This document shows positions 26,931 to 31,750 of a DNA stretch of 32,000 nucleotides, piece by piece. This DNA is from Cylindrospermopsis raciborskii Cr2010 (lineage in GTDB: Bacteria; Cyanobacteriota; Cyanobacteriia; Cyanobacteriales; Nostocaceae), in contig NZ_CP065936.1 of NCBI RefSeq assembly GCF_003367075.2, forward strand, positions 390,001 to 422,000, in the 5' to 3' direction. The stretch's first letter is position 1. The number at the start of each line of letters is the position of its first letter. Under the pieces are notes generated by a model that ran no database searches, was not told where the DNA came from, and was given only the letters and a program-made list of their open reading frames with translations. The position numbers were made by a program, and so were the translations under genes.

Positions 26931-26986
26931 AATGCAAATTGGGGAAATGGCTCAATTGATTTTAACTCACAACCAATCCAACCATT

Positions 26987-27072
26987 AAGTGGGTGAGTAG
27001 AATTAAACATTAAGATGAACGTAGGTTGGGTTGAGGATACGAAACCCAACACCCCCACAGGTTACCCTACAA
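26987..27072. repeat. MITE-like repeat, copy 4 (subfamily B)
   Basis: AAGTGGGTGAGTAGAATTAAACATTAAGATGAACGTAGGTTGGGTTGAGGATACGAAACCCAACACCCCCACAGGTTACCCTACAAATTA. It shares the left arm and hairpin with copies 2 and 3. Its right end is diverged and shorter. Confidence 0.75.
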
Positions 27073-27073
27073 A

Positions 27074-27298
27074 TTACCCCTTAGGTTTGACACCCTTCCA
27101 TTCTTGAATCAATTCCTTGTTTTTAAAAACTTGCACCGTTGGTGTACCCACAATTCCAGCATTTTGCGCAATGTCCTGATCCTCATCAATATCGATTTCC
27201 ACAAAATGTATCCTCCCATCAAAATCATCCACCACCTTGTTGAGTATGGGTTTAAGGGTATGACAAAGACCACAACCAGGAGCAACATACTTTACCAC
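27074..27298 (-). pseudogene. Duplicated 3' fragment of the NTRC thioredoxin domain (74 codons, CGPC changed to CGLC)
   Basis: [73 protein letters not shown] is near-identical to residues of the intact gene. It lacks the N-terminal part of the Trx fold. It starts only at a GTG that follows an in-frame TAA. Confidence 0.75.
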
Positions 27299-27318
27299 TA
27301 ACAGGCGATCGGTCCATT

Positions 27319-27408
27319 AAGTGGGTGAGTGGAATTAAACATTAAGATGAACGTAGGTTGGGTTGAGGATACGAAACCCAACACCCCCACAGGTTACCCT
27401 ACAAATTA
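27319..27408. repeat. MITE-like repeat, copy 5 (subfamily B)
   Basis: It differs from copy 4 at one position (GAGTGG vs GAGTAG). Its right end overlaps the NTRC stop codon (TAG at 27401-27399, minus strand). Confidence 0.75.
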
Positions 27409-28612
27409 CCCCCAATTACCTCACGATATTCCCCCTTAGGTTTGACACCCTTCCATTCTTGAATCAATTCCTTGTTTTTAAAAACTTGCACCGTTGGTGT
27501 ACCCACAATTCCAGCATTTTGCGCAATGTCCTGATCCTCATCAATATCAATTTCCACAAAATGTATCCTCCCATCAAACTCATCCACCACCTTGTTGAGT
27601 ATGGGTTTAAGGGTATGACAAGGACCACAACCAGGAGCAACATACTTTACCACTAACAGGCGATCGCTTTCATGGAATAGTTTCCTGAGAGCATAACCAC
27701 CATGATGGCGTGTTTTCTGTAGATTGAACTCGGTGGGGGGAATTTCTTGTTGGGGTTGGGTGGTGGATTCTGGAGTTGGTTCCGATTGGGTTTGATGGAA
27801 TTCCTGAATTAAACCCCCTGATGATAACCATCTTTCTGCTAATAGTGCTGCTTGACAACCAGTACCCGCAGCGGTGATTGCTTGACGAAATTCATGGTCT
27901 TGAACATCACCAGCAGCAAACACCCCCTCCACACTAGTTTCCACATTTCCATGTCTGGTGACAATGTAACCTATCCCATCTAGCTCCAATTGTCCCTGAA
28001 ATAGCTCTGTATTTGGTTTATGTCCTATGGCGTAAAATAAACCCCTAGCAGGAATGGTATTTTCTTCCCCTGTATGGTTGTTACGCACTTGCACCCCCAC
28101 CATTTGCTCCTTACCGATTACATCTACCGCTTCTGTATGCCAGTGAACCTTGATTTTAGAATTACTTAAAACCCGATCTTGCATAGCTTTAGAAGCACGC
28201 ATCTTATCAGAACGCACTAATAAATGTACTGTAGAGCCATACTTGGTGAGGTAAACAGCTTCTTCCGCTGCGGAATCACCAGCACCAATTACCACCAACT
28301 CTTGACCGCGAAAAATAGGAGTTGCACCATCACAAATGGCACAAGCAGAAATTCCCCGACTCCAAAACTCCTTCTCACTGGGTAAACCTAGACGTTTAGC
28401 AGTTGCACCAGTCGCAATAATTAAACTATGGGTTTTCACCTCCCTCTCTGAAGAACTAACAATAAAAGGACGCTGACTCAAATTAACGGATATCACATCC
28501 TCTGTGTACAATTCTGCCCCCCAGCGTTCCGCTTGGGCTTTCATATTAGTCATTAAATCTGGTCCGGTGATTCCCTGGGGAAATCCCGGAAAATTTTCTA
28601 CTTCCGTGGTTG
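27399..28612 (-). CDS. NADPH-dependent thioredoxin reductase C (TrxR-Trx fusion), exon 2
   Basis: The track ORF 27399..28553 begins at an internal Met. The frame is open upstream to the 3' splice site and reads (T)[24 protein letters not shown]. It has the TrxR redox site CAICDG, the NADPH site [10 protein letters not shown] and a C-terminal Trx domain with CGPC. Joined to exon 1, the length is 1389 nt, or 462 codons plus a stop. Confidence 0.9.
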
Positions 28613-28618
28613 GTTAAA

Positions 28619-30169
28619 CTAAGCCAAAAGGTCACCCTCTTGACTCGTCTTCAGAACCGTGCATGAATTTTTCAATTCACACGGCTCCTCAATGGGGTGG
28701 GACTTGTCTTGTCTACCTAGCATACCGTCTTTAACAGCTTTTGCCTGGGGATGAATATTCTGTGTGCTTCCAGATCTTCTTAATTTCAAATCTTGGTGGA
28801 TATGTTGGTGCTTCATCAGTTCGTAGGTTTTACCCCCCGAGTTCTGGTGACAAAATCTCCAACTCTCTCCCATTGACCAGTATTTTTTACTAATCCATCT
28901 CTTACCTTTTTGGTTGTGTCGTCGTCGTGACCAAGCTCTTAATTTAGATTGTAACTCAAAATCTACCTTGCTAAAAATGCGATCGCTTATTAGGGGAGAG
29001 TAGTATTTTGTCCAGCTTTCAATTAAGGGATTCAGCTTACTAATCAGCACTGATTGTTTAGCGGATCGGTGCTGGTCAATAATTGCTCCCAGGGACTTAG
29101 TATGGTGTTCTAGGCTTTCTTTACTAATAGAAATCAAAGTGCTATAGCTGGTGTTATAATGGTTTGACCCTGAATCAGAGTTTTGGGATAATTTGTCATG
29201 GGTGACAAACTGTCTAATATAAAACCCCAAAAAGTTACAACCCACATTTCCCTGATAATCATAGAGACTGTGGGAGACCCTGCTTCCTCCCGCTTTCAGC
29301 TGTAAACCCACTTCTGATAGCCATTGGGTAATAATATTCTGACACAGAATAATCACTTCCAATTCCTGATGTACCAGCACGAATCTACCTTTGTGCTTAA
29401 CAAAGTGAGGAATTACATCACAGCCAAAACTAGTAGTATCAGCTATTAGACCAACCCAATTAATCCTCCGTTGCAATTCCCCTAAAGCTGCACCCAATAA
29501 AAGGGAACATAGGGAATGTGGGTGATTGAGAAAACCCAACTTCAACCATAATTTGATTTGTTTCCCCAGTAATGGAAAAGTATTAAGCTGCTTGAGGAAA
29601 TATTCAGGGTTAACCCCCTGGAAACTTTCTTCCAACTCACCAACTAAAACATACTTAGGTTTTTTTACCACTTCCCTGCGAATAGACCTAATAGCATCAT
29701 AACAAGAAATATCAGAATTAGCCTCGTGTAAACCCAAATTTAACTTTGCATCCCATTCTGGACTCATCGCCATACTAATAAGCAAAGTCAGAGCCTGGTT
29801 GTATATAGTAAACACAACCAAAGAAAGATTTTTCCTGACCAGTAGTGATTTGGCAATAACAGAGAGTTCCCTAGCCAAAACCAGTTTTTGTTCAGGAGAG
29901 AAAGATTTAGCACCCTGGTCCTGGGGAAATACCCCCTTCACCGCAATACATCTTGCTGACCAAGATTTAATTAACAGCTTCTGGAGCTTATGAACCGTTT
30001 TGACATCCCCACGCTGCGAGGCTTTGTATATTCTCTTTTGCAGCTTAAAAACATGACGTTCCAGTTTTTTCCAAGGAATTTCTTGCCAGTTTACATCTGA
30101 CTCAATTTCCCCAGGAACTGGTCCATTGTTTTTCCATTCCATCCGCAAGTTATTTTGGGCCTTGGACAT
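28619..30169 (-). CDS. Group II intron-encoded protein: degenerate RT domain, retained maturase (X) domain, no recognisable endonuclease domain
   Basis: 516 aa with an ATG start. The N-terminus WKKLERHVFKLQKRIYKASQRGDVKTVHKLQKLLIKSWSARC and the X-domain-like LISKLNPLIESWTKYYSPLISDRIFSKVDFELQSKLRAWSRRRH are typical of cyanobacterial group II IEPs. There is no YADD; the protein contains no Asp-Asp dipeptide anywhere. Confidence 0.85.
   Translation of the reverse strand: MSKAQNNLRMEWKNNGPVPGEIESDVNWQEIPWKKLERHVFKLQKRIYKASQRGDVKTVHKLQKLLIKSWSARCIAVKGVFPQDQGAKSFSPEQKLVLARELSVIAKSLLVRKNLSLVVFTIYNQALTLLISMAMSPEWDAKLNLGLHEANSDISCYDAIRSIRREVVKKPKYVLVGELEESFQGVNPEYFLKQLNTFPLLGKQIKLWLKLGFLNHPHSLCSLLLGAALGELQRRINWVGLIADTTSFGCDVIPHFVKHKGRFVLVHQELEVIILCQNIITQWLSEVGLQLKAGGSRVSHSLYDYQGNVGCNFLGFYIRQFVTHDKLSQNSDSGSNHYNTSYSTLISISKESLEHHTKSLGAIIDQHRSAKQSVLISKLNPLIESWTKYYSPLISDRIFSKVDFELQSKLRAWSRRRHNQKGKRWISKKYWSMGESWRFCHQNSGGKTYELMKHQHIHQDLKLRRSGSTQNIHPQAKAVKDGMLGRQDKSHPIEEPCELKNSCTVLKTSQEGDLLA
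28654..28687 (-). ncRNA. Group II intron domain V (catalytic hairpin)
   Basis: GAGCCGUGUGAAUUGAAAAAUUCAUGCACGGUUC. It has a 9-bp lower helix containing the AGC triad, a 5-bp upper helix, a GAAA tetraloop and a 2-nt 3'-side bulge (AU). The total is 34 nt. Confidence 0.9.
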
Positions 30170-30825
30170 TTTTACTGCTACTTAAAACCATACATTCCAA
30201 CCCATCGTGTCTACGTCAGCTTATCCTTTGGCTCTCCCAAAGGCCAATGCTTCTTAGACAATCCCTCCTACTATGTTGCTTGCGGTTAGCACCTACTCAA
30301 GTTTTCGACCTCAACTCAAGAGCTAACATAGAGGTTACTTCGTTCCTAATCTTCGTTTGGCGTTAGTTTTAGAACCTCTCTCTCCACCGGGTTACTTCCA
30401 GGGTGCAAGGTTGCAAATAATGAATTTTCCAACCCTTTTCACCATTCCCAATTTTAGGAAAAGCCTAATCCGCGTTGGCTTATTGGTCATTACGATGGTT
30501 CTGTCGAAAGTTTGACCCCTAGGTCTGTTCATGACTAACTGTGCTAGAAGGGATTCCCAGTCGGACTCTATAGGTTACCTCCGTTTATCCCCGCTTCATT
30601 AGTTTGATGGCTACTCTCTCCAATGGGGGATATGCTTTCACCCATGCACCTTAGGGGAAGGAATTACCTGATATTCAATAATGTTCAGGTTCACCTTCAC
30701 GAAGATTAAGTTATCTGGGTTTATTCCACCCAGTGACCTATCCCTCAATCTTATTATTGGTTATGCAAGCTATAGCTGTTTTACAACTATTATTTGCACT
30801 CATAATCAGAATTGATTTCAGATCA

Positions 30826-31023
<198 letters not shown>

Positions 31024-31225: not shown

Positions 31226-31750
31226 ATGAAAACTAAACTCCAGGTTAAACTACTCCAGTATATCCTGATTAGGGACAAAACAGCTCAAGGTTTTACTCTG
31301 CTAGAACTACTAGTGGTTATTGTCATTATTGGTATACTGTCCGCGATCGCCTTGCCCTCTTTTTTTACCCAAGCCAACAAAGCTAAGGAATCAGAGGCTA
31401 AAACCTATGTCAGTTCCTTTAATAAAGCTCAAACCCTATACAGGCTAGAAAATACCGGGTTTGCTACCACTCTTAATCAGTTATCAATTACCGTTCCCGC
31501 ATCCACAGATTTTTACAACTACACGATTGGAGGGAGTGGTACTATTACCAACCTTACAGCAAGTACTAAAGACCCTAACTCCCTCAAAGGGTTTAGTGGT
31601 GGAGTAACCATATTGTCAGGAAGCGGACAAACCCAGTCTGTTGCCTGTCAAACTGAACAAGTGCAGCAAGTTCACCCTGTTGTTGTTCCCATTCTGGATT
31701 CTACCCAAGCCAAATGCGATGACACAAAAAATATGACCGCCATGAAATAA
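31226..31750 (+). CDS. Type IV pilin-like protein (prepilin N-terminal cleavage/methylation domain)
   Basis: 174 aa with an ATG start. It has the class III signal and N-methylation motif AQGFTLLELLVVIVIIGILSAIALPSF, followed by a variable globular domain with a C-terminal Cys pair. Confidence 0.85.
   Translation: MKTKLQVKLLQYILIRDKTAQGFTLLELLVVIVIIGILSAIALPSFFTQANKAKESEAKTYVSSFNKAQTLYRLENTGFATTLNQLSITVPASTDFYNYTIGGSGTITNLTASTKDPNSLKGFSGGVTILSGSGQTQSVACQTEQVQQVHPVVVPILDSTQAKCDDTKNMTAMK

Follow-up and report, generated by a model that had tools for sequence, protein, structure and literature searches.

Purifying selection on a catalytically dead reverse transcriptase, probably surviving as a splicing maturase, in a group II intron of the Cylindrospermopsis NTRC gene

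A 32,000-nt stretch of Cylindrospermopsis raciborskii Cr2010 (NZ_CP065936.1, positions 390,001 to 422,000; hereafter the window, in whose coordinates features are given, all on the minus strand unless noted) contains a gene for NTRC, an NADPH-thioredoxin reductase fused to thioredoxin, that is split after codon 58 by a group II intron. The intron, of the chloroplast-like IIB type, has become fixed in NTRC of Cylindrospermopsis/Raphidiopsis and contains an open reading frame (ORF) of 516 codons plus TAG (28619..30169; ORF list, Pfam, and string check). We found that the intron-encoded protein (IEP) has lost the catalytic residues of a reverse transcriptase (RT) and the endonuclease (En) domain, and that purifying selection, not neutral decay, has kept the ORF since the loss of the RT motifs, including the region of the former fingers and palm (RT1-5). 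The intron is probably immobile, its protein surviving as a splicing maturase for NTRC.

The initial annotation, made by eye, held that the catalytic RT landmarks were lost and that the N-terminus and the thumb/X region still looked like a group II IEP. Both statements stood: each peptide string it quoted occurs at the relative position given for it, and profile searches together with alignment to intact cyanobacterial IEPs showed that the motifs are truly gone and had not simply been misaligned. In the alignment, TAGVDG of RT0 is gone through an 8-aa deletion, RT1 carries an 11-aa deletion, FRPGRSCHDAI of RT2 in intact relatives corresponds to EANSDISCYDAI, LDADI of RT3 reads LVGEL, and PQGG of RT4 is deleted. 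YADD of RT5 has become HKGR (aa 259-262; the H259-K260-G261-R262 codons lie at 29384..29395), with HKGR, HQGG, or HRGG in orthologues. All three catalytic aspartates are replaced (V176, G261, R262). Only a remnant of the D domain is left and the HNH (En) region is deleted, and both the RT6-7 flanks and the entire domain X align well to intact IEPs. The absence of any DD dipeptide or CxxC/HNH pattern, also claimed at the outset, was borne out by a string check of the whole protein and by Pfam at E<=10.

Pfam recognizes RVT_N and GIIM alone in the ORF. RVT_N (PF13655, 77.7 bits, 8.8e-22) covers the RT0 N-terminal RNA-binding region (aa 28-89; 29903..30088), which is nearly invariant relative to intact IEPs, and GIIM (PF08388, 57.2 bits, 1.7e-15) covers domain X, the thumb (aa 356-431; 28877..29104). 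The former RT fingers/palm between them (RT1-RT7, aa 90-340; 29150..29902) is catalytically dead: neither RVT_1 nor HNH matches the ORF even at E<=10, and the MatK_N and Intron_maturas2 models likewise give no match at that threshold. Scores against TIGR04416, the NCBIfam equivalog for group II RT/maturases (cut-off 300), fall from 323 bits in an intact relative (P0005) through 264 in a relative from Umezakia ovalisporum (P0006) to 61 in the window protein, which is only 45% identical to either of them. The protein clearly descends from the TIGR04416/RVT_1 family, though it fails that family's defining RT feature.

An AlphaFold2 model of the protein, based on 67 homologues, has a mean predicted local distance difference test (pLDDT) score of 78.6 and a predicted TM-score (pTM) of 0.72. 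The pLDDT is high up to residue 468, exceeds 90 in domain X, and drops below 50 for residues 469-516. The model predicts that the RT-like fingers/palm/thumb fold is retained. Its top Foldseek matches are the T.el4h maturase in its ribonucleoprotein (8FLI_B and 6ME0_C, E ~1e-14), followed by other group II RTs and, more weakly, Prp8; 6ME0 was the sole match in a sequence search of the PDB.

The ORF had first been described as open for 516 codons. It indeed has no internal stop or frameshift, but constraint is confined to aa 1 to ~465, and the last ~50 codons, which read through intron domains V and VI (DV and DVI), are not conserved. This unconstrained C-terminal tail (aa 466-516; 28619..28774) spans the end of domain IV, DV, and DVI. 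Between aa 465 and DV it diverges at K 0.15-0.20, which is approximately neutral and close to dS, and a 5-nt indel within it shifts the frame in three sister loci (L002, L004, and L009 from Raphidiopsis brookii D9), giving products of 488-501 aa. Because the tail evolves neutrally, is frameshifted in sister strains, and has a pLDDT below 50, the functional protein is ~465 aa long, not 516. Reading through DV and DVI to a TAG stop in DVI also occurs in intact relatives such as P0005 and P0038, so this layout is ancestral to the intron lineage and not new. The intact relatives share the C-terminal peptide encoded by DV and DVI (...EEPCESKDSCTVLKTSQKGDFLA), and the ORF overlaps the catalytic domains in this intron lineage (window, L008).

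A protein search returned four orthologue clusters of 82-98% identity from C. raciborskii, C. curvispora, and metagenomes, all with RVT_N and GIIM only. Most listed cluster members from named strains (including CS-505, S07, C04, CENA303, LB2897, and R. curvata NIES-932) have ORFs of ~480-530 aa. The ORF lies between two NTRC fragments, at the identical site, in every locus that was fetched (L001 from C. curvispora, L002/L003, L004, and R. brookii D9), and directly upstream of NTRC exon 2 in the Cylindrospermopsis-like metagenome contigs L010, L013, L014, and L015. The degenerate motifs are shared by orthologues in several C. raciborskii lineages, C. curvispora, and R. brookii. All indels within codons 1-465 are multiples of three (3, 6, 9, 12, 15, 21, 30, and 33 nt); those in the non-coding intron measure 55, 17, and 1 nt.

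Chance is a very poor explanation for so long an open frame. This DNA has 31 and 51 stops in its two other reading frames, and 5.6% of the possible single substitutions in the ORF would yield a stop. When 465 codons of an intact relative were evolved neutrally, the frame survived in 0.4% of the simulations at K=0.1 and in no simulation with K>=0.2. The ORF itself differs from its Umezakia relative (L005) by K ~0.55. Within the clade of RT-degenerate sequences, at least 191 substitutions have accumulated without any stop (P ~1.6e-5).

Selection was measured on codon alignments of the ORF and of NTRC with the NG86, maximum likelihood (ML), and YN00 estimators. NG86 is biased by a transition excess (transitions to transversions, 68:56), and a neutral simulation null (kappa 1-8, conditioned on no stops) replaced the plain binomial test. 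The constrained core (aa 1-465; 28775..30169), which is delimited by pN/pS, ML omega, simulations, in-frame indels, and pLDDT, has an NG86 pN/pS of 0.33 within the RT-degenerate clade, with 69 synonymous and 85 non-synonymous differences over two non-overlapping paths (binomial p 6e-11). ML and YN00 together give an omega of 0.41-0.54, and ML alone 0.41-0.46; the ratio of about 1 that the initial annotation had named as the sign of neutral decay is thus not what is seen. At kappa 1-4, 0 or 1 of 1000 neutral simulations reaches the observed whole-ORF value.

Constraint differs between regions, with an NG86 pN/pS of 0.15 in the N-terminus/RT0, 0.32 in the former RT1-5 (p 5e-6; omega 0.3-0.4), 0.22 in domain X, a non-significant 0.56 in RT6-7 and the variable linker, and ~1 in the short post-X segment, which has too few sites to inform. 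In the simulation test, RT1-5 is significant at kappa 1-4 in both comparisons that were made (window with L001, and L001 with L004). The N-terminus and domain X are significant between the window and L001, and weaker or non-significant between L001 and L004 (P 0.07-0.19 for the N-terminus and 0.01-0.14 for X). RT6-7 falls short of significance in this test too.

The ribozyme is even more conserved than the ORF. The intron is 2224 nt long (28613..30836), begins with GUGCG and ends with UUUAAC, which conforms to the GUGYG / AY boundaries of group II introns, and its removal restores the NTRC reading frame; the insertion site is identical in all orthologous loci. DV (28650..28690) matches Rfam RF04357 with 57.4 bits (cut-off 53), and DV and DVI together (28689..28613) match RF00029 with 55.6 bits (cut-off 40). 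DVI with the 3' splice site occupies 28613..28649 according to the RF00029 alignment and the sequence, and the candidate bulged branch-point A (28620) is inside the TAG stop of the ORF (28619-28621), within DVI. Exon-binding site 1 (EBS1, UCAUUA, 30418..30423) forms six Watson-Crick pairs with the intron-binding site 1 (IBS1, UAAUGA, 30842..30837) at the end of exon 1. In Umezakia this pair reads UCAUGA / UCAUGA, both partners having changed so that pairing is kept (U:A to G:C); a second compensatory change affects the distal DV pair U-A, which is C-G in Umezakia and L008.

Within the clade, K is 0.02-0.03 for the 5' ribozyme part (domains I-III, DI-DIII, and DIVa up to the ORF start; 30170..30836) and 0-0.06 for DV-DVI, compared with an ORF dS of 0.14-0.21, so that the ribozyme evolves 5-7x more slowly than synonymous sites. 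The 64 nt directly 5' of the ATG, where the DIVa binding site is expected, are identical in all five clade sequences. Peripheral DI elements appear to be under relaxed constraint, because Umezakia (L005) has a 26-nt hairpin immediately 5' to that of EBS1 that is missing from all Cylindrospermopsis copies (window ~30425-30475, intron nt 363-412), another 17 nt beside this site are gone from L002 and D9, and C. curvispora (L001) has a 55-nt insertion close to the intron 5' end. UGACCA (intron nt 348-353), the sole EBS2 candidate in the window, is no more convincing than a random match, and an 8-nt EBS2/IBS2 complement in Umezakia falls in the stem of the hairpin that is deleted in Cylindrospermopsis. 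An Rfam scan of the 32-kb window found no second group II match; weak matches to snR13 and mir-383 inside the ORF, below the cut-offs, were discarded as chance.

The host gene is itself under strong constraint. Exon 1 (30837..31011), delimited from the ORF list and the sequence, ends in GGQLM, with its final base forming base 1 of a Thr codon, and exon 2 (27399..28612) encodes the thioredoxin reductase and thioredoxin domains. Joining the two in silico gives a 462-aa NTRC whose frame is unbroken across the junction, and NTRC omega is 0.10-0.19 within the RT-degenerate clade, with ML and YN00 giving 0.15-0.19. In current annotation, NTRC appears as two fragments and the IEPs are filed as 'reverse transcriptase N-terminal domain-containing protein'; identification of the intron corrects both.

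Two relatives at the same NTRC site are less degenerate. P0005, from metagenome contig L008, is intact, with RVT_1 (158 bits), YADD, and HNH. The U. ovalisporum protein P0006 (L005/L012) retains an RVT_1 match of 117 bits, with TAGVDG changed to TTGVDR, PQGG to PQRK, and YADD to YADY; its ORF stops short of En, and the En-like DNA downstream is broken by two frameshifts. There is thus a graded series at one site, from an intact RT with HNH (P0005) through the half-decayed Umezakia form to the fully RT-dead Cylindrospermopsis form. Hundreds of other cyanobacterial IEPs share 60-64% identity with P0005, and the window protein only 45%, so a phase of rapid change on the Cylindrospermopsis branch preceded the present moderate constraint.

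The intact form has been mobile, as a P0005-like intron (89% IEP identity) sits at a non-NTRC site in L011 (metagenome JAESGF010000435, 210-4803). The 5' exon there resembles the NTRC site (GGTGGTACAATGAAAAA versus GGTGGTCAACTAATGA), and an IS607-like insertion of 2 kb, with genes for a serine recombinase and a 433-aa TnpB-like protein, interrupts the RT ORF. Among six contigs found in a metagenome scan with the DV pattern, all four Cylindrospermopsis-like ones carry the intron in NTRC, and the one non-NTRC copy has an intact-type, P0005-like IEP. None of the Cylindrospermopsis or Raphidiopsis loci fetched showed the intron anywhere but in NTRC. In the clade, dS is similar for the ORF (0.14-0.21) and the NTRC exons (0.12-0.17), and both group the same strains, which fits vertical co-inheritance and immobility of the RT-dead intron. 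The immobility proposed in the initial annotation is therefore supported by the loss of the catalytic aspartates and En, the confinement of RT-dead copies to NTRC, and the matching dS values. The ORFs of Umezakia and the L008 host differ by a dS of only 0.5, whereas their NTRC genes are saturated at synonymous sites and encode proteins of 76% identity; in one or both of these hosts, the intron lineage therefore arrived by transfer and homed into the NTRC site.

We propose that an RT/maturase/endonuclease has been reduced to a maturase-only protein. This protein would be translated from the unspliced NTRC transcript and would bind its own intron through the N-terminal RT0 region, the residual fingers/palm scaffold, and the thumb (domain X); binding would steady the ribozyme fold and so allow the intron to leave in lariat form and the exons of NTRC to be joined. 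Lacking the catalytic aspartates, the dNTP-binding motifs, and HNH, it should neither reverse-transcribe nor nick DNA, and the intron would for that reason be immobile and vertically inherited. NTRC expression would depend on splicing, which would explain selection on both the ribozyme and the ~465 codons. The N-terminal RT0 region and the thumb/X contact intron RNA in solved ribonucleoproteins. A maturase role is the best-supported explanation, with the RNA-contacting regions most conserved, the catalytic residues and dNTP/template loops gone, the ribozyme and exon-binding site kept, and the host gene strongly constrained. It starts from what has been demonstrated: the motifs are lost, the fold-defining regions are retained, ORF and ribozyme are under purifying selection, and the intron has diverged in step with its host gene. 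That selection acts on maturase activity, exerted in cis on the NTRC intron, we infer by analogy with MatK, the O.i.I2 intron, and general knowledge of group II maturases (PMC4424553).

Several observations weigh against this interpretation. RT6-7/linker and the post-X segment are indistinguishable from neutral, omega is higher in the RT-degenerate clade (0.33-0.5) than in the Umezakia/L008 pair (~0.2; 0.21), which indicates relaxed constraint, and the AlphaFold2 alignment is rich in intact homologues, possibly inflating confidence in the palm and fingers. In addition, the ORF of R. brookii D9 (L009, ACYB01000010), annotated as a 306-aa fragment, has three 1-nt length differences (AA/AAA, A5/A4, A7/A6). 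All three are in A-homopolymers of a 2010 draft and for that reason are likely sequencing errors, so we set pseudogenisation in D9 aside; genuine differences would mean that D9 can do without the protein. Together with the loss of all catalytic motifs and En, the near-1 omega of RT6-7/linker, and the neutral, frameshifted tail, the D9 differences could be taken to mean that the ORF is a decaying pseudogene still open by chance, in an intron that self-splices or uses host factors. We regard this as very improbable given that the whole ORF, at an omega of 0.33-0.5, departs from simulated neutrality with P<0.001 at kappa 1-4, that the frame is stop-free and all core indels are in frame, and that the ORF is open in many independent assemblies. 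An open frame could alternatively be selected for translation itself, with ribosome transit preventing early termination or decay of the unspliced transcript, as the stop codon 6 nt from the intron end would keep ribosomes on most of the intron. This idea is slightly less probable still: it predicts omega ~1, yet the amino acid sequence is conserved, sister strains stop 128-146 nt before the intron end and keep the ORF core, and the layout needs no special explanation in the intact relatives, which share it.

The most serious competitor to a cis-acting NTRC maturase, though in our judgement an unlikely one, is a role beyond cis-splicing, as a general trans-acting maturase for ORF-less introns or as an RNA chaperone/RNA-binding factor. 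Purifying selection shows that the protein matters, not for what, the fingers/palm scaffold is still constrained despite lost catalysis, and MatK evolved such a broadened role (PMC4424553). However, the window holds no other group II domain V, the Cylindrospermopsis-like DV contigs all have the intron in NTRC, the sole non-NTRC copy comes with an intact-type IEP, and the ribozyme core and the DIVa stretch before the ATG show high conservation alongside the ORF, as would be expected of a cis pair; group II maturases in any case act preferentially in cis (PMC4424553). The confidently predicted RT-like fold might also be read as a polymerase with a non-canonical active site in a still mobile intron. 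This is the least credible of the alternatives, since all three metal-binding aspartates are replaced, the dNTP/template motifs of RT0, RT1, and RT4 are deleted, En is absent, no copy outside NTRC was seen in any Cylindrospermopsis/Raphidiopsis locus, and ORF and exon dS agree.

The surroundings of the gene show further rearrangement. A tandem duplication at window 26965-27666 takes in the 3' end of NTRC, which encodes the C-terminal portion of the thioredoxin domain, together with the spacer that follows; its repeat units are 27073-27311 / 27428-27666 (98% identical) and 26965-27080 / 27297-27412 (93% identical), and it has left a 74-aa thioredoxin-fragment ORF at 27074-27298. In sister strains, an ABC permease gene directly follows NTRC without the duplication. 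Locus L003 (GCA_026929755.1, C. raciborskii) has a 227-nt NTRC-derived insertion in exon 2 at ~5707, which the near-identical L002 lacks. This insertion would frameshift NTRC if real, and may be an assembly artefact or a second sign of a duplication-prone locus. Upstream of NTRC and divergent from it is a type IV pilin-like gene (31226-31750, plus strand), with N_methyl and Pilin_GH in the orthologous loci. The gene order pilin / NTRC / ABC permease is kept in Cylindrospermopsis loci and not in Umezakia.

Bacterial group II introns are almost always active retroelements, and loss of mobility with the maturase kept is regarded as an organelle phenomenon, one that is central to ideas on the origin of spliceosomal introns and Prp8. 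The case described here adds a cyanobacterial example, from the phylum that gave rise to plastids, with purifying selection, a conserved ribozyme, and natural intermediates. If the maturase interpretation is true, it would capture in a bacterium the kind of domestication that has been inferred for MatK and MatR and, as a more distant case, for Prp8. The system makes it testable in bacteria which parts of the RT scaffold maturase function needs, how fast an intron held captive by an indispensable gene loses its mobility functions, and whether the ribozyme becomes protein-dependent. We searched the literature for Cylindrospermopsis, Raphidiopsis, or NTRC together with group II introns and found no relevant description. 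The initial annotation's statement that such a case was not known to be described for a bacterial NTRC intron agrees with this search; for bacteria at large, O.i.I2 is a precedent: Zimmerly and Semper (2015) reviewed IEP degeneration as rare in bacteria, with O.i.I2 the only known example (PMC4424553). Because of this precedent, an RT-dead maturase is rare rather than unprecedented in bacteria.

The closest solved structure is that of the T.el4h RT/maturase from Thermosynechococcus (PDB 6ME0, 8FLI; sequence E 3.8e-19, TM-score 0.66-0.71 on target). T.el4h is an active cyanobacterial RT with YADD, whereas the window protein lacks the catalytic residues and several finger loops. P0005 and Umezakia P0006 belong to the same intron lineage and NTRC site, with nearly the same DV/DVI, and differ from the window protein in retaining RVT_1.

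MatK, encoded in the group IIA intron of trnK in land-plant chloroplasts, was the comparison first drawn. As in the window, the IEP is in domain IV of an intron that interrupts a needed host gene, the ORF is kept by selection, and the intron is immobile; the protein has lost YADD and the upstream RT motifs, has no En, and keeps domain X along with remnants of RT5-7 (PMC4424553). The likeness in RT decay, X retention, and a selected open ORF therefore stands. It is convergent, however, as there is no family-level homology and the window protein matches neither MatK_N nor Intron_maturas2. The MatK intron is of type IIA in a chloroplast and that of the window IIB/chloroplast-like in a free-living cyanobacterium; RT0 is almost intact in the window protein, whereas MatK is unalignable across RT0-4; and MatK serves several introns in trans, whereas nothing suggests a trans role for the window protein.

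O.i.I2, in radC of Oceanobacillus iheyensis, is likewise bacterial and inserted in a housekeeping-type gene, and its stop-free IEP, without YADD and other RT motifs, is an inferred maturase (PMC4424553). It belongs to the mitochondrial-like (ML) class and was reviewed from one organism, a Firmicute (PMC4424553), whereas the window intron is cyanobacterial and its protein is near T.el4h-type IEPs. Unlike O.i.I2 as reviewed, the present case is genus-wide, has a measured dN/dS, and has intact and half-decayed relatives at the same site. On balance we favor, somewhat less firmly than the maturase role itself, the view that this is a genus-wide, selection-maintained RT-dead maturase with all three stages from retroelement to splicing factor at one insertion site, which would make it the second bacterial case and the first with comparative evidence of selection.

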